In this document: positions 4,389 to 43,044 of the stretch, in pieces | How positions within the stretch are numbered: position 1 is the stretch's first letter | How the letters are laid out: every line of letters starts with the position of its first letter | NCBI GenBank assembly: GCA_043803945.1 | Contig: JAZDJN010000056.1 | Span: 24,258 to 88,257 of the forward strand | DNA: 64,000 nt | From: a bacterium | Lineage (GTDB): Bacteria; Bacteroidota; Ignavibacteria; UBA10030 | Direction: 5' to 3' | Program-made: the position numbers and the translations under genes | The notes under the pieces: model-generated | What the model was told of the DNA's origin: nothing | Seen by the model: only the letters and a program-made list of their open reading frames with translations | The model's database searches: none

Positions 4389-4451
4389 AATGGTGTACTC
4401 CTTAGTTAGAATTGTATAAGAACTCTCCAGTGACATTAGTTAGTTCATTGA

Positions 4452-5906
4452 TCAGGCGCTATACGCTGTTGAGGCCGTATCCCCTCCGCGCCCGGTCCAA
4501 TTCGTATGGAAAAATTCACCTCTCGGTTTATCTATCCGCTCGTACTGATGTGCACCGAAATAGTCACGCTGTGCCTGCAACAGGTTCGCGGGGAGCCATT
4601 TATGCCGGTACCCGTCGTAGAATGCGAGAGACGAGCTCATCGAAGGGACAGGAATACCCAGCTCGGTAGCCGTGACAACCACTTTACGCCATGAATCCTG
4701 ACAATTCTTCATCACTTTTCTGAAATACGAATCGAGCAGCAGGTTCGTAAGTTGAGGATTCTTCTCATAGGCCTCTTTGATCTTGCCCAGGAAGAGGCTT
4801 CGGATGATGCATCCCCCGCGCCAGAGCAGGGCTATTCCGCCGTAGTTGAGGTCCCATGTATTTTCTTTCGCTGCTTCGCGCATCAACATAAAGCCCTGGG
4901 TGTACGAAGTAATCTTTGAAGCATACATTGCTTTCCGAATGTCTTCGATGAATGCCTTCTTCTTTGCGATTGCTTTTTTCTTCGAAGGTCCCTTCAACAG
5001 CTTCGATGCAACGACACGCTCATCTTTGAGCGCGGAGAGGCATCGGGCGAATACCGCTTCTGAAACCATCGTCATCGGAATGCCCAGATCGAGCGCCGCA
5101 ACGCTTGCCCATTTTCCCGTCCCTTTTTGACCGGCAGTATCGAGAATGTAATCGAGCGCGTATTTTTTCTTTTCATCCTTGTAGGCAAGAATATCTCTGG
5201 TGATTTCAATGAGATACGAGCTTAACTCACCTTCATTCCATTCCTTGAATACTTCATACATTTCCTGATTGGACATCCCCAATCCTTCTTTCATCACCTG
5301 ATAACACTCGCAGATCAACTGCATATCGCCATACTCGATGCCGTTATGCACCATCTTTACAAAGTGGCCCGCACCATCATTCCCAACCCAGTCGCAGCAT
5401 GGCGTGCCGTCGGCGACCTTTGCGGCTATTGCCTGGAAGATCGGTTTTACGTGAGGCCACGCAGCCGGTGAGCCGCCCGGCATAATTGAAGGACCGCGAA
5501 GTGCACCTTCTTCACCGCCCGACACGCCTGTGCCGATGAAGAGGAGGCCTTTCGACTCGAGGTACTTGGTCCGTCGGATGGAATCGGGAAAATGTGAATT
5601 GCCGCCATCGATGATGATATCGCCCGCAGAGAGATGCGGAATGAGCTGCTCGATGAAATCGTCGACCGGTTTGCCAGCTTTCACCATTAACATGATCTTT
5701 CTTGGTGAAGCGAGCGATACTACAAGCTCTTGCAGGGAATGCGTCCCGATAAAGTTCTTTCCCTTTCCCCGTCCATTGAGGAAGTTATCTACTTTCTCGA
5801 CGGTTCTGTTATACACTGCTACGGTAAATCCATGACTTTCCATGTTCAAGACAAGATTCTCTCCCATAACTGCCAAACCCACTAAACCAATATCAGCCTT
5901 GTTCAT
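4452..5906 (-). CDS. gndA: 6-phosphogluconate dehydrogenase, decarboxylating (NADP+)
   Basis: GLAVMGENL, DGGNS, GVSGGEEGA, KMVHNGIEYGDMQ, GQKGTG, WRGGCIIRS, QAQRDYFGAH. Confidence 0.98.
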   Translation of the reverse strand: MNKADIGLVGLAVMGENLVLNMESHGFTVAVYNRTVEKVDNFLNGRGKGKNFIGTHSLQELVVSLASPRKIMLMVKAGKPVDDFIEQLIPHLSAGDIIIDGGNSHFPDSIRRTKYLESKGLLFIGTGVSGGEEGALRGPSIMPGGSPAAWPHVKPIFQAIAAKVADGTPCCDWVGNDGAGHFVKMVHNGIEYGDMQLICECYQVMKEGLGMSNQEMYEVFKEWNEGELSSYLIEITRDILAYKDEKKKYALDYILDTAGQKGTGKWASVAALDLGIPMTMVSEAVFARCLSALKDERVVASKLLKGPSKKKAIAKKKAFIEDIRKAMYASKITSYTQGFMLMREAAKENTWDLNYGGIALLWRGGCIIRSLFLGKIKEAYEKNPQLTNLLLDSYFRKVMKNCQDSWRKVVVTATELGIPVPSMSSSLAFYDGYRHKWLPANLLQAQRDYFGAHQYERIDKPRGEFFHTNWTGRGGDTASTAYSA

Positions 5907-5967
5907 ACAGCAATCTCCATTGTTCCGTTAATGTTACTATGAATAAAATCCCTTTTGGGTTTCCAGT

Positions 5968-7239
5968 TTATTGAAACCTCTCCTTGTAGGCCCATAGTCC
6001 CAGCGCAGGATTGGAGATGTAAAAAACCTCCTCTCCATCCGGCAATAGATTGAAACCATCTTTGAGTATTTCAGGATTGTATCGTTTGAGCATGTCCGGC
6101 AAATTGGCATAGCTAAAATTCACACCTTCAATTTCCTGCCGGCTCAAGAAGCCCGGACAGTACGTTATGCTAAACCTGTTCTCTGACGATCCATGGATAA
6201 GGTGTGCCGCCGCGCTGAGACTATTTTTCAAGTCCTCATTCTCTTCGACAAATCTGAGCACCTCGGGAGTCGTTTTGTAACCGTATTTTCTGATCAAACC
6301 ATCGATCTCCTTATCTTCGCCAAACTCTTTCAATCCGGGTGCAAGCACAATGAGTTCTCCCTCATCGGCAATAACCATACGGGTTCGATAGATGCTCTTG
6401 TTGCCAAGCCAGGTACTTTTGAATTCATGCGGATCGAGATAGACGACCACTTTCTTCAACGGGCTTTCCATCATCTCAAAGTTTACCTGGAGCGACAACT
6501 CGGAGGCACACTTGAAGCATTCTTCATCATCACCGATGTAAAGCCCTTTCATCACAAGAGAGCCATGCTCATCCTTTCCGATCACTGTCTGAACATAGAC
6601 GATCGGAAGGTGTTTTGCAAAATGTCCGGAAGCATAATTGAGCACCCGCCGAACCGGCGTGTCAGCGCGGCCCATCATCCGCTCCATCCCATAGACAGCA
6701 CCGAGGAAATGACTCTTGTTGATCCCCTCACGCCCGCCTGTGCCGACAAAGATATTCTTGTTGTAATTTGCCATGCCGATCACTTCATGGGGTACAACCT
6801 GGCCGAGCGAGAGAATGAGATCATAGCCGCCTTCCACGAGAAGTCGGTTTACCTGCGCGGGCCATGGGTAATTCACCTTTCCTTCCGACACCTCAAAAAG
6901 AAAACTTGCCGGAACCTCACCGAGTGTGACCAGGTCTTCCCGCCAGCGATGAACTCTGAATAAATCTTTCGGTACACTGCCGAACATCGTTTCGATCTGG
7001 TCTTCCGTCATCGGCGAATGTGTGCCGAGAGCAGGCAGGATGTCTGTCAACCGATTCCCGAAATAGTCGTAGGAATATCTCGTCAGTTCACCAGCCCGTG
7101 AATGAAAGCGTGTAATATCAGGTGGAATGGCCAGCACCTTATTCCGCTTCCCCATCTTCTCGAATGCAGAATACAATCCCTCCCGAATATCACCTTCGGT
7201 CAACGCCGAGGTGACAGATCCCTTTGCATAGTAGAGCAT
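5968..7239 (-). CDS. LarA-family (lactate racemase domain/DUF2088) nickel-pincer-nucleotide enzyme, putative D-mannonate/D-gluconate 2-epimerase (GntE-like)
   Basis: PPDITR and ALGTH motifs. PHEVIGMANYNK...KSH has the H-x9-K-x15-H spacing of LarA His174/Lys184/His200. Sits between hexuronate genes and gnd. Confidence 0.8.
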   Translation of the reverse strand: MLYYAKGSVTSALTEGDIREGLYSAFEKMGKRNKVLAIPPDITRFHSRAGELTRYSYDYFGNRLTDILPALGTHSPMTEDQIETMFGSVPKDLFRVHRWREDLVTLGEVPASFLFEVSEGKVNYPWPAQVNRLLVEGGYDLILSLGQVVPHEVIGMANYNKNIFVGTGGREGINKSHFLGAVYGMERMMGRADTPVRRVLNYASGHFAKHLPIVYVQTVIGKDEHGSLVMKGLYIGDDEECFKCASELSLQVNFEMMESPLKKVVVYLDPHEFKSTWLGNKSIYRTRMVIADEGELIVLAPGLKEFGEDKEIDGLIRKYGYKTTPEVLRFVEENEDLKNSLSAAAHLIHGSSENRFSITYCPGFLSRQEIEGVNFSYANLPDMLKRYNPEILKDGFNLLPDGEEVFYISNPALGLWAYKERFQ

Positions 7240-7254
7240 TCGTTGCTTCCCTTC

Positions 7255-8340
7255 TTATCGTTTAATCCTTGCACTGCCGCCACCCATCACATGCCGAAGT
7301 TCTTCCATTGTAACCATACTTGTATCGCCGCGGGTCGATTGAAGCAGAGCGCCATGCGCCGTTCCCATTTCGACACACTCCTGCGGCGGCATCCCCTGCA
7401 GCAAGCCATAAATGAATCCGCTGCAGAAACCATCGCCGCCGCCGACACGATCTTCAACCTCAAGATTTTTATAGTTTCGTGATTCGTAGAACACACCGTT
7501 ATAATACATGATGGCCGACCAGTTATTGACCAGTCCGCTAATAACTTCGCGGAGGGTCGTACCGACCGCCTGGATATTCGGATATGCGGCAACAACTTTT
7601 TTTACCATCGCTTTGTATCCATCGACCGGCAGCAAATTGAGATGTTTATCGGCACCTTCAACTTCAAATCCAAGCACCTTTTGAAAATCTTCTTCGTTCC
7701 CGATGAGTACATCGATATAGGGAACAAGCTTCTTCGTCACGTCAATGGCTTTCTTGCTTGACCAAAGCTTCGAACGGAAATTAAGATCGTAACTAACGAT
7801 AGTCCCGGCCTCATGCGCTGCTTTCATGGATTCAAGTGCGACCTTGGCGCAACTGTCGCTGAGTGCGGTAAAGATACCGCCCGTGTGGAACCAGCGAACT
7901 CCCCTTTTTGTGAACACCTTCTTCCAATCAACATCACCCGGTTTCATATGGGCAGCCGCAGTATGGCCGCGATCATAGAGGGTGACACTTGCCCGGACAC
8001 CAATGCCCACTTCGGTAAAGTTCAGGCCGATTCGGTCTGCACGGCCCGACCCATCATACGGCACCCAGACAACTTCGCTGATGTCCATGCCGCTGGTGCG
8101 TGCGTGATTTTTAATGAAGTGCCCAAGGGGATTATCTACCAGGCGCGAGACCCAGCTTGTCCGAAACCCATAACGGGCAAGAGCATACGTGACATTATAT
8201 TCACCGCCACCGGCATAAGCTTCAAATAGTGGTGTGAGCTCGATGCGTTGGTGACCCGGAGGGCTGAAGCGAATCATGCATTCCCCGAGCGAGAGAACAT
8301 CGAATTCATTTTCTGAAGCAGATTTTATTTTCAATGACAT
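7255..8340 (-). CDS. PfkB-family sugar-acid kinase (KdgK-like), paralog B
   Basis: LGECM, GGGEYNV, YDLNFRSKLW, GNEED, DRVGGGDGF. Start re-placed at MSLKIKS (8340, SD GAGG) to remove the overlap with the upstream kinase. Confidence 0.9.
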   Translation of the reverse strand: MSLKIKSASENEFDVLSLGECMIRFSPPGHQRIELTPLFEAYAGGGEYNVTYALARYGFRTSWVSRLVDNPLGHFIKNHARTSGMDISEVVWVPYDGSGRADRIGLNFTEVGIGVRASVTLYDRGHTAAAHMKPGDVDWKKVFTKRGVRWFHTGGIFTALSDSCAKVALESMKAAHEAGTIVSYDLNFRSKLWSSKKAIDVTKKLVPYIDVLIGNEEDFQKVLGFEVEGADKHLNLLPVDGYKAMVKKVVAAYPNIQAVGTTLREVISGLVNNWSAIMYYNGVFYESRNYKNLEVEDRVGGGDGFCSGFIYGLLQGMPPQECVEMGTAHGALLQSTRGDTSMVTMEELRHVMGGGSARIKR

Positions 8341-8374
8341 AGCCTTCCTCTGATAATATCCTCCTTGAGATTGG

Positions 8375-9463
8375 TTATCGCTGAATACGCGCCGAGCCGC
8401 CTTTCGCGAATGCCCGAACGTGTTCAACCGTTGCCATCGTCGTGTCGCCGGGGAAGGTCGTCAGCAATGCACCATGCGCCCAGCCTAATCTCACTGCTTC
8501 CTCCGGAGTCTCACCGTTCAGCAAGCCATAGATAAATCCGCCAGCAAATCCATCGCCGCCGCCAACACGATCGTAGACGTCGAGCTCGCATGTCGGAGCT
8601 GTATAGGTCTGCCCTTCCACCCATGCAACAGCACTCCAGCTATGCCGGTTTGTTGAATGCACTTCGCGTAATGTGGTAGCAACCGCTTTTACATTCGGGT
8701 ACTTCGCTGTGACGCTTCCAATCATTCCGAAAAACGCGCTTGGGTCAAGCTGTGATTTAGCGGCAACCTCGGGGCCCGGGACACCAAGTCCCTTTTGCAG
8801 GTCTTCTTCATTGCCTACCAGCACATCGACATTTTCAACAATGCGTTTAATCGTATCGACAGCTTTTTGCTGGCCGCCCCAAATACTCCAGAGTTTCTCG
8901 CGGTAGTTTAGATCGAAACTCACGATTGCACCCACCTCTTTCGCCGCTTTCATGCCTTCAATAATGACCTCGCCGGTTGTGGCTGAAAGTGAAGCAAAGA
9001 TGCCGCCGCTATGAAACCATTTGACCCCTCCGGTAAAGATGTTTTTCCAGTCAAAATCGCCGGGCTTTAATTGTGCTGCCGCTTCATTCGATCTGTTATA
9101 AAAAACGACCGGAGCACGCACGCCTAATCCCTGATCGCTATAGACGGTTGCCATATTGGGCCCGTTGACACCGTTATGTTTGAAGTGTTTATAGAATGGC
9201 TTTACTCCCATGGCACGCACCCGCTCGGCGATGAGATCGCCAATCGGATAGTCGACCATGGCGGTGGCAATCGCTGTGTTCATGCGGAAGCAATCAGAAA
9301 GATTTGCTGCCACGTTAAACTCGCCGCCGCTCACATGGATGCGGCATTTGGTTGCTTTCCGGAATGGAACGATTCCGGGATCCAGCCGATGCACACACGC
9401 ACCAAGAGAGACCAGATCGAGCACTGCCGTTTGATTAATCTTCAAACCATGATTCATTCCCAT
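8375..9463 (-). CDS. PfkB-family sugar-acid kinase (KdgK-like), paralog A
   Basis: GGEFNVA, FDLNYREKLW, GNEED, DRVGGGDGF, C-terminal GGSARIQR. Confidence 0.9.
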   Translation of the reverse strand: MGMNHGLKINQTAVLDLVSLGACVHRLDPGIVPFRKATKCRIHVSGGEFNVAANLSDCFRMNTAIATAMVDYPIGDLIAERVRAMGVKPFYKHFKHNGVNGPNMATVYSDQGLGVRAPVVFYNRSNEAAAQLKPGDFDWKNIFTGGVKWFHSGGIFASLSATTGEVIIEGMKAAKEVGAIVSFDLNYREKLWSIWGGQQKAVDTIKRIVENVDVLVGNEEDLQKGLGVPGPEVAAKSQLDPSAFFGMIGSVTAKYPNVKAVATTLREVHSTNRHSWSAVAWVEGQTYTAPTCELDVYDRVGGGDGFAGGFIYGLLNGETPEEAVRLGWAHGALLTTFPGDTTMATVEHVRAFAKGGSARIQR

Positions 9464-9558
9464 ACATTCTTCCCTTCAACTATATGTTATACAAAGCAAC
9501 CGTCTTCATAGAAAGGGCTGAAGCCCTGTGTGGTATGTTTGGATTTTTCATATCCCTT

Positions 9559-9677
9559 GAGGGTGACTAAAAAGAAAATATTACACTAACCCGAAGGCGT
9601 CTCGCCGAGGGAGATAGCGAAATTATTATGCTCGGCGAGGACGCCTTCGCACTAGAAAATACTTTTGGGTCAGCCTC
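9559..9677. repeat. MITE/REPIN-like element, shell type shared with the other copies but with a different internal REP pair
   Basis: Outer inverted repeats GAGGGTGACTAAAAAG / CTTTTGGGTCAGCCTC. Inner inverted pair CGAAGGCGTCTCGCCGAG (9592-9609) / CTCGGCGAGGACGCCTTCG (9631-9649). Confidence 0.8.
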
Positions 9678-9725
9678 AACCAAGAATTTCATATACCAAA
9701 TTACATTCTTTTGAGATCCTTTTCA

Positions 9726-10559
9726 TTATACACCTGAGTACGCAGAGAATCCGCCGTCAATCGGCAGAACAATCCCCGTAACAAATTTTGAAGCAGGTGA
9801 AAGCAGCCACAGTGTCGCTCCCAGCAAATCATCCGGAGCGCCGAAGCGTCCCATCGGTGTATGATCGAGGATTTTCTTTCCCCGCGGAGTGAGCTCACCC
9901 GTCTCTTTGTCGGTCAGGAGAAATCGATTTTGATCCGTCAGAAAGAATCCGGGGGCAATGGCGTTCACGCGGATATTCGGTGAATACTCCTGCGCCATAT
10001 GGACTGCAAGCCACTGCGTAAAGTTGCTCACCGCAGCTTTTGCCGCCGAGTAGGCAGGAATTCTCGTCAACGGACGGAATGCATTCATCGAAGAGACATT
10101 GAGAATGATACCCTCCTTTTGGTTCACCATGATCTTGCCAAAAACCTGGCTTGGCAGAATTGTGCCGATCAGATTCAGGTCGGCGACGAATTTAATCGCA
10201 TCCTCGGGTAGATCGAAGAACGACTGCTGTGGATTTGTCGTGGCCTTTGGATTATTGCCGCCGGCACCATTGATGAGGCAGTCGACCTTGCCAAATGTTT
10301 TGATAACTTCATCAGCGGCTTTTTCGAGGGACTCCTTTTTGAGAACATCTCCATAGACCACAAGATGTTTTCCACAGTTCGTTTCAAACCGCTTGACAAG
10401 TTTCTCGGCCAGCGACGGATCCCGATCAACTATTACGACATTGGCGTTGCAGCTAACGAGGGCGCACGCCATTTCACCGCCAAGGACACCGGCTCCTCCT
10501 GTGATTACGACTGTGCGGCCTGTAAAATCATACATTTGCATTAAAGTATTCTTATACAT
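9726..10559 (-). CDS. uxuB: SDR-family D-mannonate oxidoreductase (fructuronate reductase, UxuB-like)
   Basis: TGGAGVLG, INGAGGNNPKATT, NVSSMNAFRPLTRIPAYSAAKAAVSNFTQWLAVH, PGFFLTDQNR, DGGFSAYSGV. These match the SDR-type mannonate dehydrogenase family. Confidence 0.88.
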   Translation of the reverse strand: MYKNTLMQMYDFTGRTVVITGGAGVLGGEMACALVSCNANVVIVDRDPSLAEKLVKRFETNCGKHLVVYGDVLKKESLEKAADEVIKTFGKVDCLINGAGGNNPKATTNPQQSFFDLPEDAIKFVADLNLIGTILPSQVFGKIMVNQKEGIILNVSSMNAFRPLTRIPAYSAAKAAVSNFTQWLAVHMAQEYSPNIRVNAIAPGFFLTDQNRFLLTDKETGELTPRGKKILDHTPMGRFGAPDDLLGATLWLLSPASKFVTGIVLPIDGGFSAYSGV

Positions 10560-10575
10560 GGTTGATCGCTCCTGA

Positions 10576-11892
10576 TTAAATTTCTACACGCTTCATTTTA
10601 GGTGCCAAGGCATTGAAGATTACCCAAGCAATGAGATAAGCTGATCCGCAAATAAGGAACATCACATAATACCCTGTTTCAATGGAGTTGAGGGCTTTAT
10701 AGTGATCAAGTAACAAGCCGGCAATTTTTGCAATGAAGATACCGCCTACGGCCCCGGCCATACCTCCAAGACCAGTAACAGAAGCAACCGCCTTCTTCGG
10801 AAACATGTCTGAAGTTGTTGTAAAAATATTTGCAGACCAGGCTTGATGTGCCGATGCCGCAATTCCGACAATGAGAATCGCAAACCAATAGCTGTATTGT
10901 CCTAATGCTTGAGCCGTTGCGACAGGCAATGCACAGAGAGCAAAGATAAGCATTGCGAGTCTTCGGGCTTTGAATACCTCCCACCCCTTTTTAATCAAAT
11001 AGCCGGAAAGCCATCCGCCGAAGATACTTCCAATGGTAGTCATTGTATAAACAACAGCAATGGGTAGCGCCAAGTCCGTCTTCGACATCCCATATTGCTT
11101 ATTCAAGAACGAAGGCAACCAGAATAAATAGAACCACCAGATAGGATCCGTTAGGAATTTGCCAACGATAAATGCCCATGTCTGACGAAAGGTGAGGAGT
11201 TTGAACCAACTAACTTTTTCCTTCTCCAGTGATTCAGGAACTACTTCATCGAGATCGCTGTGAATATAATCGAACTCGGCTTTCAATAATTTGCTGTGCT
11301 TGCTGGGGATTTCATACATGGCAAACCAGAAAAACAACCAAAGTAGTCCGATGGCACCGGTAAGAATGAATGCCCATTCCCATCCCCACCACATAGCAAT
11401 TAACGGCACGGTTAACGGTGCGATGATCGCACCCACGTTCGTGCCTGAATTAAAAATTCCTGTTGCCAGGGCACGTTCTTTCTTTGGAAACCATTCTGCA
11501 ACAGTTTTTATTGCTGATGGGAAATTTCCCGCTTCACTGATACCTAAAACTCCGCGAGCAACCATGAAACCCAAGGTATTGCGCGCAAAAGCATGACCAA
11601 TCGCAGCAAAGCTCCAGATCAGAAGCGATAAAGCATACCCTATTTTTGTTCCTATTTTATCGATGATCCAGCCAACACCGAGCATACCAATCGCGTATGA
11701 AATTTGAAATACAATGATGATATCAGCGTAATCCGACTCTGACCATCCAAAGAGCGGTTCAAGATAATCGTCTTTTAGCAAGCTGATGACCTGGCGATCG
11801 AGATAGTTAATGGTTGTGGCAAAGAAAACCAGTGCCAAGATAACCCAGCGGTAGTGGCCGATTTTTTTCTGCATTCCGGCTTGTTCTGTCAT
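10576..11892 (-). CDS. exuT: MFS hexuronate transporter (ExuT-like)
   Basis: YRWVILALVFFATTINYLDRQ, EAGNFP, EWFPKKERALATGIFNSG, DPIWWFYLFWLP, AHQAWSAN; about 12 hydrophobic segments. Confidence 0.92.
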   Translation of the reverse strand: MTEQAGMQKKIGHYRWVILALVFFATTINYLDRQVISLLKDDYLEPLFGWSESDYADIIIVFQISYAIGMLGVGWIIDKIGTKIGYALSLLIWSFAAIGHAFARNTLGFMVARGVLGISEAGNFPSAIKTVAEWFPKKERALATGIFNSGTNVGAIIAPLTVPLIAMWWGWEWAFILTGAIGLLWLFFWFAMYEIPSKHSKLLKAEFDYIHSDLDEVVPESLEKEKVSWFKLLTFRQTWAFIVGKFLTDPIWWFYLFWLPSFLNKQYGMSKTDLALPIAVVYTMTTIGSIFGGWLSGYLIKKGWEVFKARRLAMLIFALCALPVATAQALGQYSYWFAILIVGIAASAHQAWSANIFTTTSDMFPKKAVASVTGLGGMAGAVGGIFIAKIAGLLLDHYKALNSIETGYYVMFLICGSAYLIAWVIFNALAPKMKRVEI

Positions 11893-11948
11893 AAAATTTA
11901 TCGTGTTAGTGATGGTTGTGAGTGGTTGTATTTTAAGACATCCAGTAC

Positions 11949-13364
11949 CTATGTTGCATCAAATCCAAAATACTCCTTTGCATTCCTGTAGCAAATATCC
12001 GAGACCATGCTGCCGACGAGGGAAAGATCATTCGGGAGCATTCCTTTTTCCATTTCCTCTCCCAGCAGGTTGCATAAGACCCGGCGGAAATACTCGTGAC
12101 GCGGATACGAGAGAAAACTTCGTGAATCGGTCAACATACCGACGAAGCGGCTCAGCAAACCCATGTTCGACAATGCTTGTAGTTGACGTTCAATGCCATC
12201 TTTTTGATCGAGGAACCACCAGCCGCTGCCGTACTGCATTTTCCCGGGACTTGTTCCATCCTGGAAATTGCCGATCATTGTTGCCATCAATTCATTGTCG
12301 CGTGGATTTAAATTATAGAGAATCGTTTTGGCCAGTTTGTCATTGTTCGCCAGTCGTCCGAGCAATTTTGCCAACGGCCGGGCAATTTCGAAATCGCCAA
12401 TCGTATCATATCCGGTATCCGGTCCGAGCACCCTGAACGAATGCGGATTGACATTTCGGAGTGCACCGATGTGGAACTGCTGGGTCCATCCCTTCTCCGC
12501 ATCCATCACACCAAAGAGGTACAACATTGCAGATTTAAATTGAAGCACTTCGGCAGTGCTCAGTGTTTTCTGACTGAGAGCTTTTCCGAAGATGTTTTCA
12601 ACTTCCTGTTGGGTGTACTCTTCGGCATAAATCGTTTCAACGCCGTGATCCGAAAGCCGGCAGCCATTTGCATGAAAATAATCATGCCGGCGGTTCAATG
12701 CATCGAGGTATTGGGAAAAATTGGTGATATGGCTGTTTGCCGCCTCACCGAGTTTGTTCACCCAGCCGGCAAAGGCTTCTGTGTTTTCAACCATCATCCC
12801 CTTGTCGGGCCTGAATGCCGGAAGCATCCGGAACGGTACTTTCGATTGCCGGCAAAGCGCCTGGTGGTATTCCAGCGTATCGATGGGATCATCGGTCGTG
12901 CACACCACCTTCACGTTCATTTGTTTGAGAATTCCCTGTGTGGAGAATTTATCGCTCTTCAGTTTCCGGTTGCATTCATTCCAGATTGATTTCGCCGTCT
13001 TACTGTTCAATAATTTGTCGGAGATGCCAAAGGGGCTCTTCAACTCCATATGCGTCCAATGATAGAGCGGGTTTCTCAGTGTTTTTGGAACAGTGTCTGC
13101 CCACGCCAGAAATTTCTCCCAGTCCGAGGCATCGCCGGTGATAAATCGTTCGTCGACGCCGTTGGCCCGCATCGCCCGCCATTTATAGTGGTCGCCGAAC
13201 AACCACATTTGTGTCATGTTATCAAACTTCCTGTTCTCCGCAATATCTTTTGGTGAGAGATGGCAATGATAATCAATAATGGGCTGCCCCTCTGCGTAGG
13301 TATGATAGAGTTTGATGGCAGTCTTTGAATTCAGGAGAAAGTTCTTCGTGATAAAAGTCCTCAT
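11949..13364 (-). CDS. uxaC: Uronate (glucuronate/galacturonate) isomerase
   Basis: PIIDYHCHL, GDHYKWRAMR, NPLYHWTH, TTDDP, FRPDK, SDHG, GSGWWFLDQ, GMLTDSRSFLSYPRHEYFRR. Confidence 0.98.
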   Translation of the reverse strand: MRTFITKNFLLNSKTAIKLYHTYAEGQPIIDYHCHLSPKDIAENRKFDNMTQMWLFGDHYKWRAMRANGVDERFITGDASDWEKFLAWADTVPKTLRNPLYHWTHMELKSPFGISDKLLNSKTAKSIWNECNRKLKSDKFSTQGILKQMNVKVVCTTDDPIDTLEYHQALCRQSKVPFRMLPAFRPDKGMMVENTEAFAGWVNKLGEAANSHITNFSQYLDALNRRHDYFHANGCRLSDHGVETIYAEEYTQQEVENIFGKALSQKTLSTAEVLQFKSAMLYLFGVMDAEKGWTQQFHIGALRNVNPHSFRVLGPDTGYDTIGDFEIARPLAKLLGRLANNDKLAKTILYNLNPRDNELMATMIGNFQDGTSPGKMQYGSGWWFLDQKDGIERQLQALSNMGLLSRFVGMLTDSRSFLSYPRHEYFRRVLCNLLGEEMEKGMLPNDLSLVGSMVSDICYRNAKEYFGFDAT

Positions 13365-13436
13365 CGAGTAAACTCCTTGTTGTTCATACTTATTGAACGT
13401 ATTTGAGTGTTATTGATAAATGTCAAATTCTACACA

Positions 13437-13462
13437 ATCACGATATTCATTGCTATCGTGAT
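13437..13462. promoter_or_regulatory. Inverted repeat upstream of uxaC, candidate regulator site or hairpin
   Basis: ATCACGATA-N8-TATCGTGAT, perfect 9-bp arms, next to a minus-strand TTGACA (13421-13426) in an AT-rich intergenic region. No convincing -10. Confidence 0.35.
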
Positions 13463-13591
13463 GGCAACTACTTATTTCAAATTTTTCTTTTCGCGTTGTG
13501 TGAAATCCTCATCTTATTTTTACTTTATTGATGACGCTGTTTTTTCTCTCCCATCAACAACAATCAAAGAGTATCAAAATAACCATATTGG

Positions 13592-14860
13592 TTATTGCGT
13601 TGTAAAGTGCCAGAGCGGACCTGAAAGCGTATCCTTCTCTGTAATTTCATTCACCCGCCAGTAATAAGTCGTTTTACTCTCAAGGATCCCTGTATTGAAC
13701 ACCGTTTGTTGTTGATTGCCTTGAAATTCAGGATTGGTACTTTTTCCGAAATAGACATTGTGCGATACTGCATTTCGTGTCGCTACCCATTGCAGCAGAG
13801 AATTCTCGGCCGGTATTCGATACGATCCATCACGCGGCTTCGGCTGGAACACATAGGGCAGAACAGCGGGCATCGTTCCTTCCGGATCCCACTTCCCTGC
13901 AAATGTCCATTTTGCTGTGATGTCACTTTCTTTCGGCGAGCCCTCAGCCGTCGAGAGATTATCCCGAAACCAATCGTAGTCCCCGCCTTCCCGATGACAA
14001 TTATAATAGTAGTGGCGCTCGCCCCATTTCCAGGTCCGGGCGTTGGGCGATACGGGAAGATAAATCTGCCGGTCGGCCATCGATCGGGAGAAGATGCAAT
14101 CGAGAAGATAGGTCTGGCCATCCCGGTGATGCCGGCCCAGCGGAAAGTTTGGAACTCCGTCGAAACTCGAATACCGGATCACAAATTTCTGATCCTTGTC
14201 ATAGCCACCATCATGCCAGAGTGAGGCACTGAGGTTGTGGCCGAAAAATTTACTGTCGGTAATGTAGCACCATCCGCGCGGACAGACATAATCGACCCAC
14301 CCTTCAAAGGAACAATCGGCATGGTAGTACATTCCCGTCTCTTTGTCCCATAAACTTACCGTGTCACCTCCATCCGCAATGACCGTGCAGGCAAGAATGA
14401 TGATACGCGTGCCTTCGCCGCGGATAGCAAATTGGTGCTCCGCGGTGTTATGGAGCGATCCATAGTTATTATGGATTGTGAGGTTCGCAAGGATGAGATC
14501 GGTGACAGTTGAATCGATGTTGACTGTTGCCGATCCCCAATCGCTTCCGTTCTGTGCCGCAATCCAGTTCTTCCGGAGCTCCGGGAAGACAATCCGTGTG
14601 CTGTCGCGGCTCTCGCCGACAAGTGTGACATAACTTTTTTGAATGAACAGCTTTTCCTGATAGAGGCCATTCTTTATGAGGATGATGATTGGGGATGCAT
14701 TACTTGCCGGGATCGAGTTCAGAGCATCCTGGATAGACCGGTAGTGGCCGCTGCCGTCCTGGGCAACAATAATATGAGCACGCTCTCCGGTCGATCCGAA
14801 GACCAGCAGAGGAAGTAAAACAAGAAGCTGCAAATATTTTTTTAGGACAACCTTTATCAC
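13592..14860 (-). CDS. Pectin methylesterase (CE8) with C-terminal FN3-like domain
   Basis: IIVAQDGSGHYRSIQDAL, IKNGLYQEK, GGDTVSLW, EGWVDY, LGRHH. C-terminal LQW...VYFG...TTYYWRV repeat-type domain. Signal peptide. Confidence 0.88.
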   Translation of the reverse strand: MIKVVLKKYLQLLVLLPLLVFGSTGERAHIIVAQDGSGHYRSIQDALNSIPASNASPIIILIKNGLYQEKLFIQKSYVTLVGESRDSTRIVFPELRKNWIAAQNGSDWGSATVNIDSTVTDLILANLTIHNNYGSLHNTAEHQFAIRGEGTRIIILACTVIADGGDTVSLWDKETGMYYHADCSFEGWVDYVCPRGWCYITDSKFFGHNLSASLWHDGGYDKDQKFVIRYSSFDGVPNFPLGRHHRDGQTYLLDCIFSRSMADRQIYLPVSPNARTWKWGERHYYYNCHREGGDYDWFRDNLSTAEGSPKESDITAKWTFAGKWDPEGTMPAVLPYVFQPKPRDGSYRIPAENSLLQWVATRNAVSHNVYFGKSTNPEFQGNQQQTVFNTGILESKTTYYWRVNEITEKDTLSGPLWHFTTQ

Positions 14861-14902
14861 ATTATTCCTTTTTGGACATTCTCTCGTTCAAACCTTCACA
14901 CC

Positions 14903-16600
14903 TTACTGTATTGTTACTGCTCCCTTTCGTTCTTTCTCTTTGAAAAAAACTGGAACTTTTATTTTCGAAAGATCAACCTTGTTCACCACGATGCCATTTG
15001 TTTCATCATCCAATACGGCAATTCCCGTCTCCGCCGAAGGAGAAACCGTACCATCCTTGATGGTCATATTCTTTGCACCGAGGAATGCAAACGCAGGGCC
15101 ACTGGTTGTTTTTAATGTAAACCGATTCAGCATCCAACCTTCGGTATCGGCAAAGAAAGCACCGTACTGTGCACTGATGGTGACATCGGTCAGCGTAATG
15201 TTTTTGATCGGCGATTCCGGAACGCCAAACACTGCAAGAGCCCTCTTTGCGCCGGTGCAGACAATATTCCGGATTGAGAAATCCCTGAAGTAAGGTGTCC
15301 GGTTTGTGACCGGTTCCTGCTTGCGCCATCCCTCGCTTTGGACGCGCGTTTCGGTATTCCCCTCTTCATAATAGTAGTCGAAGAGAATGGCATCGGTGGC
15401 AATGTTCTTCATACGGATACCATCAATATATATTTTCTCTGTGATGCCACCGCGATCCCGCGTCGTCTTGAACCGGAGACCGATATCGGTATCGATGAAT
15501 GTACAGTTCCGGACTGAGACATTGCGCGTACCGCCGTACGATTCCGAACCGATAACAAATCCCCCATGGGCACGGTAGACGATGCAATCAGCGATGACGA
15601 TATTTTCACAAGCTACTTTCCAATCTTTTCTCGATCCAAACCCGCCGGGTTTCAGACAAATCCCATCATCACCCACATCAACAACCGTCTTGTAAATCAG
15701 CACCTGATGGCTCGAGGCAATATCGATCCCATCGCCATTCTGTGCGTTCCATGGATTGCGCACCGTAATGTTTCTGATGATCAAATGTTCGCACTCCATT
15801 GGATGGATGTTAAACCGCGGGGAATTTCGAAATGTCGGACCATCCAGTAATACTCTTGTGCAACCTACGATCTCCACCATATCAGGGCGCAGGAATTCCC
15901 GCGCTTTGCTGAAGTCTTTTGCTGTGGGATCTTTTTTTTGCACTTGTAATTCTTTGAGGTACTTCTCTCCGTTCATCGCTTCTTTTGATGGCCACCATTC
16001 CGTGCCCTTCTCATTCACCACCCCGCCCGATTTGATTAATTCCTTCCATTCCCGTTCTGTATATTTTTCCTTTTTCACGTAGCGCCATACTTCTCCTGAA
16101 CCATCGATCACTCCTTCGCCGGTGATGGCGATGTCAGTCAACGCGAATCCCGAGATGGGCGGTGTATAGCGAAATGATTTCGAAGTCGGTGTTCGCCGGA
16201 TGACAGGAAAATCGTCAATGCTCTTGCTAAAGAGAATCATTGCACCGCGTTCCAGATGGAGATCAATCTTGCTCGCAAGCTGAATGGGGCCCGTCAGCCA
16301 GAGTCCCGAAGGAACGACGACATGGCCGCCGCCGGCTTTTGCACATGACTGAATTGCTTCGGCAAATGCACGTGTGTTCATAGTGAGGCCGTCGCCCACC
16401 GCACCAAACTCGAGGATAGTGACAGAGCGATCGGGAATTTCCGGAAACTGCAACTCAGGCATTGTAAAGGGAAGGTTCGCGGTATAGGCCTGCAGTTCCT
16501 TTTTATCACGGTTCAGAGGCTGGGCCTTCAGATGCTGTGCGATCATTCCCATCATGAGGCAGCCAATCATTATTGTGACAACTATTCTGTGATACTTCAT
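14903..16600 (-). CDS. Glycoside hydrolase family 28 (polygalacturonase)
   Basis: FGAVGDG, GLWLTGPI, NGDGID, GDDGICLK, HGGFVIGSE, GLRFKT. Signal peptide. Confidence 0.95.
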   Translation of the reverse strand: MKYHRIVVTIMIGCLMMGMIAQHLKAQPLNRDKKELQAYTANLPFTMPELQFPEIPDRSVTILEFGAVGDGLTMNTRAFAEAIQSCAKAGGGHVVVPSGLWLTGPIQLASKIDLHLERGAMILFSKSIDDFPVIRRTPTSKSFRYTPPISGFALTDIAITGEGVIDGSGEVWRYVKKEKYTEREWKELIKSGGVVNEKGTEWWPSKEAMNGEKYLKELQVQKKDPTAKDFSKAREFLRPDMVEIVGCTRVLLDGPTFRNSPRFNIHPMECEHLIIRNITVRNPWNAQNGDGIDIASSHQVLIYKTVVDVGDDGICLKPGGFGSRKDWKVACENIVIADCIVYRAHGGFVIGSESYGGTRNVSVRNCTFIDTDIGLRFKTTRDRGGITEKIYIDGIRMKNIATDAILFDYYYEEGNTETRVQSEGWRKQEPVTNRTPYFRDFSIRNIVCTGAKRALAVFGVPESPIKNITLTDVTISAQYGAFFADTEGWMLNRFTLKTTSGPAFAFLGAKNMTIKDGTVSPSAETGIAVLDDETNGIVVNKVDLSKIKVPVFFKEKERKGAVTIQ

Positions 16601-16676
16601 AGTATCTGCGCTTTCAATATGATTTAGGATTCACTCAGCATATTCAATAGCCCAACGCTTATTTTCTTTCCAATAT

Positions 16677-16806
16677 GAGGTCGTCTATAAAGAAAAAACA
16701 CTAGGGCGTCACGAACCACTTCGTGACGCAAAATACGAAAAACATTCAGGTTTAATGTGTCACGGTGTGGACCGTGACACCCTTGGCGTCCTTTTTAGTC
16801 AGCCTC
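16677..16806 (-). repeat. MITE/REPIN-like element copy A (reverse orientation)
   Basis: Ends GAGGTCGTCTATAAAG / CTTTTTAGTCAGCCTC. 24-nt hairpins GCGTCACGAA-CCAC-TTCGTGACGC (16706-16729) and GTGTCACGGT-GTGG-ACCGTGACAC (16757-16780), 27-nt spacer. Confidence 0.9.
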
Positions 16807-16913
16807 GAGATATTCCTCATACAACAACATTTCATTAATCAGGTTATTCTGCATTTTGTTAGACATGAAAATCACATTGAGGCTGTGATGATCACACTGA
16901 GCAATTACTTGGA

Positions 16914-17957
16914 TTATTTCTTTCTTGATCCGGCAATTTTCCTAACGCAGGTTTTGCATAGCACCAGCTTAGTCGGCAGAGTGATATGCTGATACACAAA
17001 CTCCTCCTTGTTTCTAAGATTTTCGAGCGTCAGATCAAATGCTTTTCGTCCCAATTCCGTCGTTGGTTGTTCAACATAACTCATCGGCGGTGAGAGAAAT
17101 TGATTCAAGCCGCTATTGCCAAAGCAGATGAGGTCAATATCGTCGGGGATTTTCAATCCCAATTCTTCCGCCGCACGATACACGCCCAGCGCTACAGGGA
17201 ACGTAACGGCGAAAATAAATTCCGGCATGCTGCCGGCCTCATACATTTTAATAAACCCGCGATAGCCATCATCTTCACTGAATCCTCCGAACGTAACCCA
17301 CTCCGGACGAAGAGAGACACCATTATCTTTTAACGAAGTTTCAAAGCCCTTAAACCGTTCTTTGCCGATATTTGTATGCTGATATCCGCCGATGTGCCCC
17401 AATTTTTTATACCCGATGCTGATGGCCTGTTCCGTTGCGGCATAGGCGCCGCCACGGTCATCGGCCACAACAGTGTTGAATCCTTTCAGGTTTACCACGC
17501 GATCCATAAAAATAATCGGGACTCCCATTTTCTTCACTGTCTCAAAAATCGAATAATCTTTCGTCTGCTGCGTGACCGAGACGATCATGCCATCGACACG
17601 CATGGAGAGCAGCGATTGAACGTGGCGCAATTCTTTCTCGACACTTTCCTGGGAAACGGTCAGAATGATTTCATAATTATTCTGAAATGCTGCGTCATAA
17701 ATAGACTCAATGACAGACGAAAAGAAGAAGTGGGCAATCTTAGGTACAATGAGCCCGATGGTATTGGTTTTCCGTGACGAGAGATTTCTTGCATGAAAAT
17801 TGGGGTAGTATCCCATATCGCGGGCAATTTTTTTCACCTTCTTTGCGGTAAGTTCGGAAATATCCGGGTGGCCGCGAAGCGCCTTGGATACGGTAACCTT
17901 TGTGACTCCAAGCTTCTTGGCAATATCACTCAACGTTACTTGAAATCCCTTTTTCAT
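16914..17957 (-). CDS. LacI-family transcriptional regulator
   Basis: VTLSDIAKKLGVTKVTVSKAL HTH, YYPNFHARNL hinge, RVDGMI, IPDDIDLICF, VEQP. Confidence 0.95.
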   Translation of the reverse strand: MKKGFQVTLSDIAKKLGVTKVTVSKALRGHPDISELTAKKVKKIARDMGYYPNFHARNLSSRKTNTIGLIVPKIAHFFFSSVIESIYDAAFQNNYEIILTVSQESVEKELRHVQSLLSMRVDGMIVSVTQQTKDYSIFETVKKMGVPIIFMDRVVNLKGFNTVVADDRGGAYAATEQAISIGYKKLGHIGGYQHTNIGKERFKGFETSLKDNGVSLRPEWVTFGGFSEDDGYRGFIKMYEAGSMPEFIFAVTFPVALGVYRAAEELGLKIPDDIDLICFGNSGLNQFLSPPMSYVEQPTTELGRKAFDLTLENLRNKEEFVYQHITLPTKLVLCKTCVRKIAGSRKK

Positions 17958-18015
17958 CTGCGTCCTTTTCTGGATGACTCATGGATCCTGATCATATCGC
18001 TGTCCCCTGCGCAGT

Positions 18016-19584
18016 TCAGGAATTTAATTGCCTGAGCGGCTTGAGATGGCGTTCAAAATGTTTAATAAGACATTGATAGTGCACCTCTTCGTTCTTCTTC
18101 AGACACTCCATAAGGCGATCTTGAAAGATCAGGCGGCCGTGCTCATCTTTCGAGGAGAGAATCGTACCAAAGGTCACATGCAGAATCTGACGGGCATTCT
18201 CTTCCATTAACAATGATTGCAGTTCAGCATCCGTGTACTCACAGGCTCGCTTCATTTTTGCAATCTCGGCTGTCACATGATACGATTGCCGGTCATTCTG
18301 ATAGTGTGCTCGGGCATAGTCGAGAATTTCCCTGAAGAGCTGCGGTTCTGCGATTGCGATGGCACGCAGCGCTTCGAGCCAGCTTGTGCCGGCAGTTTTG
18401 ACATGCACCGCACCGGATTTCAATGAACCGACAGCTTCATAGACAAGGAACTTATCGCTTCCCGAATGAATACTGATTTTGTACGGACCGGAATATTGGG
18501 CAATCAGCAGATGTTTTCGATACTCTTTCGTAAACTCGCAAAGGTCGCCTTTATATTCGATTCCCTTTTCGAAATCACCAATGAACCGCGGCGCCAGACT
18601 GACCAGCGTTATGTGAAGACGCTTACATTCATTTGCAATAATAAAATGTTCAAGCGGAGATGTCGGCGTATCGGTCTCATCCACCGAAAGCTCAATTTCG
18701 TACGGTTTGCTTCCCCATTTCTGTTTCAGGTGATTGGCAAGTACAACTGTCTGCGCGATGGCAGCGCCATATTTTACCAATGCCCTGAGGACTAGATCGG
18801 TTTCTGGAACGAGCACAAAATCGTCGGCAAACGTGAATTGCTGCCCGGCATAGCGGTCAACCATGGATTCCAGCGAATCCTGCAGCAGGTTCCATGGCAA
18901 TGCGGCGGCTCGCTGTTTCACTTCTTCCAAAGGCATCCGGGCAGCTTCATTCACTACATGAGCACCGATATCCAGGGTGAACATTGTAAATCCGACACTT
19001 GCGTAGCGGTCAATATCGGCGGAGGTTTTCAAATGATCGCCATCCGCTCCGAAGCCGTCTTTGTATCCCTCCTGGAACACAGCCCAGGTTGCTGCATCCA
19101 TAACGTCGCCGGCTTCCCGTTTTGTCCGCTCCAGCTCACGTACGGATTGCTGTGCAAGAATCGGTTTGAAGCCGCTGCCTGTCATTGCACGAAGATGTCC
19201 GGCATTGGCAATTCCAAGACGATCGCCGCACCCGAGTGAATTGTGCAGGCCAAGGACCGTAGGGCACGTGAAGGGAAAGAGCATTCTCAATGAATCGGCA
19301 TTGCGATGATGCATCGGGCAAAGTTTCACAGTCGCTGACTTATTTCCACCTGAGTATGTGAACAATATTCCTTCGAAGAGACGGGATACTTCAGTTTCTT
19401 TTTCCTCTGTCAGAATACAGAGAAATTTTTCCGAGCCGTTCTTCCCGACAAAGATGAATGTGTTATCAACCCCCTGAACCGATTTTGGATAGACCGTCAG
19501 TTGGATCTGCGATGTGAGCGAGAGTTCAGCCGGAGTTGTGCTCTGGTTTGGATTCGGTTGTGGAAGAATATCTTGGATGCTCAT
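18016..19584 (-). CDS. uxaE: Tagaturonate/fructuronate epimerase
   Basis: SLGCGDRLG, AQQSVRELERT, GADGDHLK, ELSVDET, LAPRFIGDFEKGIEY, KISIHSGSDKF, HVKTAGTSWLEA, RQILHVTFG. Confidence 0.93.
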   Translation of the reverse strand: MSIQDILPQPNPNQSTTPAELSLTSQIQLTVYPKSVQGVDNTFIFVGKNGSEKFLCILTEEKETEVSRLFEGILFTYSGGNKSATVKLCPMHHRNADSLRMLFPFTCPTVLGLHNSLGCGDRLGIANAGHLRAMTGSGFKPILAQQSVRELERTKREAGDVMDAATWAVFQEGYKDGFGADGDHLKTSADIDRYASVGFTMFTLDIGAHVVNEAARMPLEEVKQRAAALPWNLLQDSLESMVDRYAGQQFTFADDFVLVPETDLVLRALVKYGAAIAQTVVLANHLKQKWGSKPYEIELSVDETDTPTSPLEHFIIANECKRLHITLVSLAPRFIGDFEKGIEYKGDLCEFTKEYRKHLLIAQYSGPYKISIHSGSDKFLVYEAVGSLKSGAVHVKTAGTSWLEALRAIAIAEPQLFREILDYARAHYQNDRQSYHVTAEIAKMKRACEYTDAELQSLLMEENARQILHVTFGTILSSKDEHGRLIFQDRLMECLKKNEEVHYQCLIKHFERHLKPLRQLNS

Positions 19585-24157: not shown

Positions 24158-24162
24158 ATGAA

Positions 24163-29106: not shown

Positions 29107-29137
29107 TTGGGATTCCTGCATAATGGTAAATGATTTT

Positions 29138-42795: not shown

Positions 42796-42840
42796 TCAGA
42801 ACTCTGCCATAATTGTTAAGCGAAAATCAAATCCCCCGTA

Positions 42841-42859
42841 CCCCCTTTACGAAAGGGGG
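42841..42859. repeat. Short REP-like hairpin at the left border of the IS1595 island; degenerate direct copy at 45134-45150
   Basis: CCCCCTTTACGAAAGGGGG versus CCCCATTACGAAAGAGG. Confidence 0.55.
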
Positions 42860-42921
42860 ATATATACATAGCAAACCCAAAGGGGAAATAGAACATTGAA
42901 AACCATAAAAAGGATTTTTAA

Positions 42922-43044
42922 TCACTTCTTCGGATGTGGCGGAACTTGAACGATCCGTCGCATTGCTTCTTCAAAACTCATTTCGGGTTTTGGAGGTTTA
43001 TCGCGCTTGGGTGTTGTCGCTGTGATCGGTTTTTGTTTTTTCAT
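42922..43044 (-). CDS. Small basic protein (40 aa) at the 3' end of the IS1595-derived element
   Basis: Below the ORF-track cutoff. MKKQKPITATTPKRDKPPKPEMSFEEAMRRIVQVPPHPKK*, starting 2 nt after the upstream stop. Confidence 0.55.
   Translation of the reverse strand: MKKQKPITATTPKRDKPPKPEMSFEEAMRRIVQVPPHPKK

Follow-up and report, generated by a model that had tools for sequence, protein, structure and literature searches.

We describe a pectin and hexuronate utilisation cluster of an Ignavibacteriota-like bacterium (of the Fibrobacteres-Chlorobi-Bacteroidetes, or FCB, group), in which a homolog of the nickel enzyme LarA is encoded between two PfkB-family kinase genes and gnd, the gene for 6-phosphogluconate dehydrogenase. 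The cluster lies in a stretch of 64 kb from contig JAZDJN010000056.1, which is at least 88 kb long. We refer to this whole stretch as the window, positions are counted within it, and statements about the absence of genes cover the window alone.

Gene content of the cluster

In the list of open reading frames (ORFs) the minus strand carries every long ORF from 1.4 to 24.2 kb, and gene identities were assigned by scanning the window ORFs with Pfam and NCBIfam profiles. The genes named in an initial annotation of this DNA were all found at the positions it gave, all on the minus strand, which is the strand of every gene described in this section. The genes for uronate conversion are uxaE, encoding tagaturonate 3-epimerase (18016-19584; PF16257, 539 bits against a cutoff of 27), uxaC, encoding uronate isomerase (11949-13364; PF02614, 694 bits; NF002794, 647 bits against a cutoff of 387), and uxuB, encoding a fructuronate reductase / D-mannonate oxidoreductase of the short-chain dehydrogenase/reductase (SDR) type (9726-10559; PRK08277, 377 bits against a cutoff of 281), for which the KduD models of NCBIfam score under their cutoffs. 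An ExuT-like transporter gene of the major facilitator superfamily (MFS) lies between uxaC and uxuB (10576-11892; MFS_1, 200 bits; TIGR00893, 236 bits, under the cutoff of 395), and gene context points to a hexuronate or aldonate as its substrate.

A four-gene unit follows, consisting of two PfkB kinase genes, Kin2 (8375-9463) and Kin1 (7255-8340 with a revised start; PfkB Pfam model, 101 bits), the gene for the LarA homolog, a predicted hexonate 2-epimerase (5968-7239), and gnd, encoding an NADP-dependent decarboxylating 6-phosphogluconate dehydrogenase (4452-5906; TIGR00873, 768 bits against a cutoff of 427), in which the Pfam domains 6PGD and NAD_binding_2 are both present. Gnd, UxaC, UxaE and the SDR-type UxuB thus exceed curated or Pfam cutoffs. 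The Kin1 ORF as listed, 7255-8427, has a TTG start and overlaps the stop codon of Kin2. Because it runs into that stop codon and GGAGG-like purines precede an ATG at 8340, the latter is likely the start of Kin1, and the resulting protein of 361 aa aligns from its first residue with other kinases.

The remaining genes of the cluster are concerned largely with pectin. Pfam and NCBIfam profiles identify a pectate lyase with a sorting tail of the type IX secretion system (T9SS; 22466-24241), a GH88/105 unsaturated uronyl hydrolase (21218-22462) and a GDSL or pectin-acetylesterase-like protein (19621-21174). Between uxaE and uxaC lie the genes for a LacI-family regulator (16914-17957; LacI and Peripla_BP domains), a GH28 polygalacturonase or galacturonidase (14903-16600; PF00295, 102 bits), whose scores for the NCBIfam galacturonidase and PglA models are both under cutoff, and a pectin methylesterase (pectinesterase; 13592-14860; PF01095, 68 bits). 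A TonB-dependent receptor (1386-4436; TIGR01782, 321 bits against a cutoff of 310) begins 15 nt past gnd and is possibly co-transcribed with it. Elsewhere the window encodes T9SS components, glycoside hydrolases and a small number of unrelated products.

The LarA homolog

With Pfam, the LarA homolog gives a weak match to Lar_N (E 1.8e-9). The equivalog model NF052594, named "nickel-dependent putative hexonate epimerase", matches it with 669 bits against a cutoff of 500; the model is the counterpart of group 18 of the LarA homologs (LarAH) in Desguin 2020. Score and signature residues both make the protein a member of this group. Its signature D R H H E V K H .. W L N K agrees with the group-18 signature in Dataset S2 of Desguin 2020, and comparison with the rows of that dataset finds the loop EV, W-L-x-N-K and S-A-A-x-L-I-H in the window protein. 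In LarA, the cofactor nickel-pincer nucleotide (NPN) is bound by R75, K184 and H200, and D72, H108, H174 and K298 are catalytic (Desguin 2020). The counterparts in the window protein are R44, K161 and H177 for cofactor binding and D41, H74, H151 and K281 for catalysis. All seven are kept, and they are invariant or nearly so when the protein is aligned with 18 relatives, the most distant at 42% identity. The motifs and spacings read earlier from the DNA are exact on the translation, namely D41-x2-R44, G72-T73-H74 and H151-x9-K161-x15-H177.

The sole solved structure matched by sequence is 4NAR, the Thermotoga maritima protein GntE2 (E 2e-36). An AlphaFold model of the LarA homolog has a predicted local distance difference test (pLDDT) of 95.8 and a predicted template modelling score (pTM) of 0.91, and its best Foldseek match is again 4NAR (E 2.3e-30, template modelling (TM) score 0.81, about 25% identity), followed by malate and lactate racemases; all 14 top matches listed, within ranks 1-15, are LarA-family structures. 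Homology, fold, and cofactor and catalytic residues therefore all place the protein in the LarA superfamily.

The signature features of group 18 are held in common with groups 19 and 20, of which the enzymes from Corynebacterium glutamicum (group 19) and T. maritima (group 20) have been shown to epimerise D-mannonate to D-gluconate, their substrate being free D-mannonate (Desguin 2020). A later paper from the same laboratory added a eukaryotic GntE and is not known to include a group-18 enzyme. We consider that the LarA homolog is most likely an NPN-dependent hexonate 2-epimerase that would interconvert D-mannonate and D-gluconate, because uxuB lies upstream, a kinase gene and gnd adjoin it, and relatives are fused to gluconokinases (see below).

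Relatives and their conserved neighbourhood

A word-indexed search found at least 8000 relatives of the LarA homolog at E <= 1e-10. The closest named ones among the matches listed, at 75-80% identity, belong to Melioribacteraceae, Melioribacter, Rosettibacter, Stygiobacter and Ignavibacteriales, and one relative already bears the NCBI name "D-mannonate epimerase". An exhaustive search of representatives at 50% identity found 381 clusters at E <= 1e-30. With one genome taken per species, 600 genomes matched by pattern, of which 596 encode a relative, so that relatives are present in at least this number of species.

The 80 best matches of these at least 596, all from different species, 65-78% identical and exclusive of the window's own genome, were examined as related loci (by record title 46 Bacteroidota, 11 Ignavibacteriota, 7 Acidobacteriota, 7 Verrucomicrobiota, 4 Planctomycetota and 5 others). 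They are not independent, being best matches dominated by Bacteroidota, and 38 are shorter than 15 kb. Genes were counted by tblastn of the window proteins with identity thresholds, and families absent from the window were queried with representatives from related loci; clusters of ORFs were not used for counting because greedy ORF calls were faulty in some high-GC loci. Counted in this way, 49 of the 80 loci have gnd no more than 10 kb from the epimerase gene, as do 29 of the 42 that measure at least 15 kb, a linkage far beyond chance. A uxuB homolog (at least 45% identity) is present in 48 loci, the uxaE family in 30 and uxaC in 24. The corresponding numbers are 12 for Eda within 10 kb of the epimerase gene, 9 for KduI and 6 for UxuA. 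The recurring gene string is (uxaE)-uxuB-kinase-epimerase-(other genes)-gnd, and it extends across phyla.

The window proteins are nearest to those of Ignavibacteriota loci, where counterparts are found for Gnd in locus L008 (84% identity), for Kin2 in L004 (82%) and for the transporter in L015 (77%). The epimerase itself is 65-80% identical across phyla, which, together with the retention of all catalytic residues, argues for strong selection on it. Among cultured organisms, Mariniphaga sediminis SY21 (L020) and Acidobacteriaceae KBS 146 (L059) carry a related locus.

Two further genes recur in related loci and are not present in the window. In 33 of the 80 loci, 28 of them within the 46 Bacteroidota loci, the epimerase gene has a PdxB-like D-2-hydroxyacid dehydrogenase gene directly downstream (for example L011:11272-12408 and L052:11357-12487; 423 bits, slightly short of the 4-phosphoerythronate dehydrogenase cutoff of 434), and a Gfo/Idh/MocA oxidoreductase gene often stands between the two (17 loci). 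In a Limisphaerales locus (L062:370-3223), genes for the PntA/PntB transhydrogenase are directly beside a string of Kin2-type kinase, epimerase, uxuB and gnd, which recalls the NADH/NADPH balancing discussed in Valk et al. 2020.

The two PfkB kinases

Kin1 and Kin2 are 43% identical to each other, and the best PDB match of both is the 2-keto-3-deoxygluconate (KDG) kinase KdgK of T. maritima, 2AFB (237 bits for Kin1, 165 bits for Kin2). Kin1 falls short of the KdgK equivalogs, with 339 bits for NF041633 (cutoff 700) and 192 bits for NF041332 (cutoff 440). Kin2 has intact GGGD and NEED motifs and, among the Pfam and NCBIfam models, matches those of the PfkB type alone, with no match to TIGR01313 or FGGY. 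The suggestion that the kinase here is of another family than in T. maritima is thereby borne out, the latter having a sugar kinase (COG1070 is given for group 20 in Table S1 of Desguin 2020).

A quick maximum-likelihood tree of 58 kinases from the related loci together with Kin1 and Kin2, with support from the Shimodaira-Hasegawa-like approximate likelihood ratio test (SH-aLRT) only, contains three clades. Clade A (26 rows), from Bacteroidota and Planctomycetota, sits on a very long stem, and 22 of its members adjoin the epimerase gene. The Kin2 clade (16 rows, SH-aLRT 98) comprises kinases from Ignavibacteriota, Verrucomicrobiota, Acidobacteriota, one Bacteroidota locus and one Gammaproteobacterium, and 11 of its 15 locus rows adjoin the epimerase gene; orthologs of Kin2 at 65-82% identity do so in Ignavibacteriota, Verrucomicrobiota, Acidobacteriota and a Gammaproteobacterium. 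The third clade (18 rows, SH-aLRT 95) contains Kin1, its 65%-identical partner from L014, three Verrucomicrobiota or unclassified kinases and a subclade of 13 rows. Because 11 of these 13 adjoin Eda or UxaC, we regard the subclade as the ordinary KdgK of these phyla. Altogether 34 of the 58 locus kinases adjoin the epimerase gene, 22 from clade A, 11 from the Kin2 clade and one from the KdgK clade, so that two separate PfkB clades are found in the same position.

Profile scores and residues divide the kinases in a similar manner. Against the kinase half of an NCBIfam aldolase-kinase fusion model, two Eda-adjacent kinases score 562 and 537 bits, Kin1 339, Kin2 246 and two clade A members 174 and 157. 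Forty alignment columns are at least 90% conserved both among the 16 Kin2-type sequences and among the 13 ordinary KdgK, yet with a different residue in the two sets. Kin1 retains the KdgK residue at nine polar or glycine columns (E20, R32, G44, R103, G105, E110, S118, D123 and N272). Replacements common to the Kin2-type and clade A kinases are Arg to Pro, Glu to Asp, Ser to Pro, Ser to Glu and Asn to His, and the replaced columns may line the sugar pocket. Three loci (L012, L015 and L023) hold a Kin2-type gene beside the epimerase gene as well as a separate Eda-KdgK pair, which speaks against Kin2-type enzymes being the KDG kinase. We therefore assign to Kin2, with moderate confidence, the role of pathway kinase, that is, a putative hexonate 6-kinase acting on gluconate, or on mannonate. 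If so, this is a new specificity within PfkB.

A search for longer relatives of Kin2 gave nine matches, including an apparent fusion of Gnd with a Kin2-type kinase (P0275, metagenomic, 814 aa). It contains out-of-frame stretches, is most likely a frameshifted call, and was retained as a case of adjacency only.

Proposed route and the order of its steps

From gene identities, conserved residues, fold and the synteny across phyla, we infer the following route. UxaC, UxaE and the SDR-type UxuB would turn galacturonate (and glucuronate) into D-mannonate, which the separate unit Kin2-Kin1-LarAH18-gnd would take onward. The group-18 protein, with its NPN cofactor, would invert C2 to give D-gluconate; Kin2, a PfkB kinase from the KdgK lineage, would phosphorylate C6 to give 6-phosphogluconate; and Gnd would convert the latter to ribulose-5-phosphate, CO2 and NADPH, so that NAD(P)H used by UxuB would be recovered through Gnd. 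Kin1 would most likely serve as the kinase for KDG, the source of which is the unsaturated uronates that pectate lyase and the GH88/105 hydrolase set free. The substrates, the order of epimerase and kinase, the role of Kin1 and the supply of cofactor are predicted in this scheme. The chain to ribulose-5-phosphate is the most economical reading of the genes and is backed by the synteny conserved across phyla and by natural gluconokinase-epimerase fusions, and we judge the whole route, galacturonate to mannonate, gluconate, 6-phosphogluconate and ribulose-5-phosphate, to be reasonably probable. The initial annotation had proposed the chain from mannonate onward; its fit to genes, synteny and fusions stands, whereas the sequence of epimerase and then kinase had been assumed and is reversed in Lactobacillus suebicus (Valk et al. 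2020).

The fusions bear directly on this order. In four cluster representatives (P0126, P0127, P0150 and P0172) an N-terminal gluconokinase of the GntK/IdnK type is fused to a group-18 domain, with 124-180 bits for TIGR01313 (cutoff 114) and 477-576 bits for NF052594, three of the four being over the cutoff of 500. These fusions, and the activity of groups 19 and 20 on free mannonate, favour epimerisation first and phosphorylation of gluconate second. A further composite protein (P0155, 823 aa) joins a group-18 domain to a cellobiose-2-epimerase-like domain of the AGE family, another C2-inverting family.

The alternative that survives best puts the kinase first. A PfkB kinase (Kin2 or Kin1) would then make 6-phosphomannonate, and the group-18 protein would be a 6-phosphomannonate / 6-phosphogluconate 2-epimerase acting before Gnd. 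This is the order measured in L. suebicus extracts, which converted mannonate only with ATP and accumulated 6-phosphomannonate, interconverted with 6-phosphogluconate (Valk et al. 2020). Two kinase genes adjoin the epimerase gene in the window, and group 18 departs from the proven free-mannonate enzymes in several positions of the pocket, with L/N where those have T/G or T/A ahead of the catalytic Lys and, in the last signature column, S where they have R. Against these points, groups 19 and 20 use free mannonate (Desguin 2020), the fusion partner is a gluconokinase of the GntK/IdnK type and GntK of Escherichia coli reportedly does not use mannonate (cited in Valk et al. 2020), and reading of the alignments revealed no additional conserved basic residue of the kind that a phosphate site would suggest. 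We consider the kinase-first order unlikely. Both orders end at 6-phosphogluconate. It is equally doubtful that the group-18 protein is a 6-phosphomannonate 2-epimerase and Kin2 a mannonate 6-kinase; if true, two orphan activities, both measured in L. suebicus in 2020, would have their first genes, the group-18 protein would be the first nickel-pincer enzyme on a phosphorylated sugar acid, the Kin2-type and clade A PfkB proteins would be two independently recruited hexonate kinases, and the mineralisation of uronates would have a hidden need for nickel in at least five phyla.

A considerably less probable explanation is that the epimerase acts on another hexonate, or runs in reverse from gluconate to mannonate and on to a UxuA encoded elsewhere, gnd being an ordinary pentose-phosphate gene parked nearby. 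The epimerase reaction is reversible, group 19 is suspected of having a different native substrate (Desguin 2020), UxuA adjoins kinase and epimerase genes in some Bacteroidota loci, being found in six of the 80 loci, and several Verrucomicrobiota and Acidobacteriota loci are without gnd and uxuB within 10 kb. What speaks against it is that 49 of the 80 loci, spread across phyla, have gnd linked to the epimerase gene, that no zwf or pgl occurs among the frequent neighbour clusters of these loci, that UxuA is absent from the window and from the 11 Ignavibacteriota loci, and that uxaE and uxuB just upstream make mannonate the obvious substrate. Least probable of all, and slightly so in comparison with the last, is that both kinases are KDG kinases, with carbon passing through KDG to an aldolase whose gene lies elsewhere, while the epimerase would be a passenger of minor activity or none: 2AFB is the best PDB match of each, the NCBIfam model on which they score highest is the kinase half of an aldolase-kinase fusion, and Eda and a Kin2-type kinase share one gene string in L004 (uncultured Melioribacter) and L006 (uncultured Ignavibacteriaceae), but L012, L015 and L023 have a separate Eda-adjacent KdgK besides a Kin2-type kinase, Kin2, like clade A, has lost KdgK-conserved residues including the Arg (to Pro) and Asn (to His), and the epimerase keeps every catalytic residue at 65-80% identity across phyla.

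Several observations weigh against the preferred chain through gluconate to ribulose-5-phosphate. The gnd gene could be a housekeeping copy. No assay of a group-18 enzyme was found in the full-text literature, and the function is a hypothesis in Desguin 2020. Both kinases score highest on KDG-kinase models of NCBIfam and reach no curated cutoff, and a literature search found no PfkB gluconate or mannonate kinase. The assignment of Kin1 as a putative KDG kinase, which draws on the quick tree (SH-aLRT) and the residue signature, is held with lower confidence than that of Kin2. Kin1 shares just 36% identity with the Eda-adjacent kinases. L. suebicus extracts phosphorylate first (Valk et al. 2020). 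Finally, profile scans of ORFs found none of larB, larC and larE in the 64-kb window, and LarB, LarC and LarE matched none of 123 scanned ORFs of related loci at E <= 1e-40 (from 245 representatives of unknown ORFs).

With respect to cofactor supply more generally, the neighbour table for group 18 (Desguin 2020, Table S1) lists no lar genes. In the locus of Acidobacteriaceae KBS 146, an ABC-type (ATP-binding cassette) permease of the NikC/Opp type (L059:4264-5175) is encoded about 5 kb upstream of the epimerase gene; its 302 bits for the nickel NikC model (cutoff 358) are too weak to call it a nickel transporter.

Relation to the Entner-Doudoroff branch

The initial annotation had noted that uxuA, uxaA, uxaB and eda are missing from the window, and two kinds of search agree with it. 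Neither UxuA, UxaA, UxaB nor an aldolase for 2-keto-3-deoxy-6-phosphogluconate (KDPG) has a Pfam match among window ORFs of at least 150 aa (at least 100 aa up to 24 kb); queries for Eda, UxuA and KduI taken from related loci have no match in the window by tblastn at E <= 1e-3, and KduI was not found by profile scans of the ORFs either. UxuA is also absent within 10 kb in all 11 Ignavibacteriota loci, and its absence there and in the window fits an epimerase route that replaces mannonate dehydratase in this lineage.

Full replacement of the Entner-Doudoroff branch is a different matter, and several findings oppose it. Genes for a pectate lyase and a GH88/105 hydrolase are present in the window, as is that for Kin1, which is KdgK-like. 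The products of pectate lyase and GH88/105 hydrolase need a KDG kinase and an aldolase. In the Ignavibacteriota loci Eda is present in five of 11 and KduI in four of 11, and in L004 the gene order is TRAP (tripartite ATP-independent periplasmic transporter)-uxaC-uxaE-eda-uxuB-Kin2-type kinase-epimerase-gnd. T. maritima also has kdgAK-uxuBA under the same regulator, UxaR. The earlier wording that galacturonate is routed here "rather than" through Entner-Doudoroff is therefore not supported: Kin1 is KdgK-like, Eda occurs in 12 of the 80 loci and in five of the 11 from Ignavibacteriota, and T. maritima has both operons. There are likely two branches, in which saturated uronates pass via mannonate to pentose phosphate, and unsaturated ones via KDG to an aldolase encoded outside the window. 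The shunt probably replaces UxuA and coexists with a KDPG-aldolase branch encoded elsewhere.

Transcription units and a candidate operator

The gap of 262 nt between uxuB and Kin2 (9464-9725, minus strand) contains, as read from the sequence, long GC-rich hairpins and is likely an operon boundary; a terminator consensus scan lists nothing within 9464-9725. The same scan finds a strong terminator-like hairpin behind lacI (16706-16729). The hairpins at these two places suggest at least three transcription units in the cluster.

Upstream of uxaC lies a perfect palindrome, ATCACGATA-N8-TATCGTGAT, with arms of 9 nt and a spacer of 8 nt (13437-13462). It is the single match in the window when up to 3 mismatches are allowed (0.03 expected), and it may be an operator. 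The same scan finds no second copy upstream of the Kin2-Kin1-epimerase-gnd unit. Since the palindrome is present just once in the window and so defines no regulon, we dropped the idea of an operator for LacI shared between the units.

Other features of the window

The lowest G+C content of the window, 0.41-0.43 compared to about 0.48, is found at 42000-46000. ORFs 43007-44092 (plus strand), 43046-43903 (minus) and 44038-44739 (minus) overlap on both strands there and have no Pfam or NCBIfam match. There is likewise no family match for ORFs 2-1264 (421 aa, open-ended), which comes after the TonB-dependent receptor that trails gnd, and 39188-40354 (388 aa). In the ORF list, the long minus-strand ORFs 26749-29385 and 29138-32131 have an overlap of about 250 nt; one of the two carries a CHU_C/T9SS tail and the other is TonB-receptor-like, and the upstream start of 26749-29385 is probably over-called.

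Comparison with known systems and implications

The precedent in T. maritima on which the initial annotation relied is sound, GntE2 (TM0442, 4NAR) being a proven NPN-dependent D-mannonate/D-gluconate 2-epimerase (Desguin 2020). The route was proposed for that organism by Rodionova 2012 (as cited in later papers), and the locus regulated by UxaR there is aldH-pelB-gnd-uxaRED-gntEK. The set of genes is logically the same in T. maritima and in the window: next to pectinase genes, each has uxaE and gnd together with genes for an SDR reductase, a kinase and an epimerase of the LarA family. Unlike the organism of the window, T. maritima belongs to a different phylum, its epimerase is of LarAH group 20 rather than 18 (about 25% identical in the Foldseek alignment), the kinase neighbouring group 20 is a COG1070 sugar kinase rather than PfkB, and the regulator UxaR is of the GntR rather than the LacI type; the unit in the window also holds a second, KdgK-like kinase.

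Group 18 was hypothesised to consist of hexonate epimerases by Desguin 2020, where its neighbours (25 genes) include SDR (9), gnd (8), a ribokinase-family kinase (4) and uxaC, MFS and kduI (3 each). At the protein level the window protein does not differ from this group; a pathway, a kinase assignment and an assay for group 18 are absent from that publication. L. suebicus resembles the window in using UxaC, UxaE and UxuB to reach mannonate, then 6-phosphogluconate and Gnd, and for it the flux from mannonate through 6-phosphogluconate to Gnd was shown and the conversion of uronate to ribulose-5-phosphate found to be redox-neutral (Valk et al. 2020). It differs from the proposed window route in that the kinase acts first, followed by a 6-phosphomannonate 2-epimerase, with the genes for both unassigned, in that the candidate kinases are gluconate-kinase homologs and not PfkB, and in that it ends in the phosphoketolase pathway. 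With the canonical isomerase pathway (UxaC-UxaB/UxuB-UxaA/UxuA-KdgK-KdgA) the window has UxaC, UxuB and the KdgK-like Kin1 in common; in place of UxaB, UxaA, UxuA and KdgA/Eda it has the epimerase and gnd.

What was already known, then, is the route (T. maritima), the chemistry (groups 19 and 20), the flux (L. suebicus), the substrate class and neighbours of group 18, and the NCBIfam model. In full-text literature, with supplements of bioRxiv preprints outside the scope, we found no report of the route in FCB bacteria, of the kinase assignment or of a group-18 assay, and neither a search of the Melioribacter literature nor the Limisphaera paper yielded a mention of the route. We conclude that the cluster is a well-supported non-orthologous variant of a known route. 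New here are the distinction drawn between the two kinases, the broad distribution, and the finding that two PfkB clades and a fused P-loop gluconokinase fill the kinase role beside group-18 genes.

If the proposed route is correct, a nickel enzyme would stand on a main carbon route from pectin and hexuronates in Ignavibacteriota, Bacteroidota, Acidobacteriota, Verrucomicrobiota and Planctomycetota, and the turnover of plant polymers in soils, sediments and digesters would be tied to nickel supply. It would explain how pentose phosphates and NADPH are obtained from uronates without net redox cost, a property singled out for engineering (Valk et al. 2020). The locus also nominates clonable candidates for the function of LarAH group 18 and for a hexonate kinase of the PfkB family.

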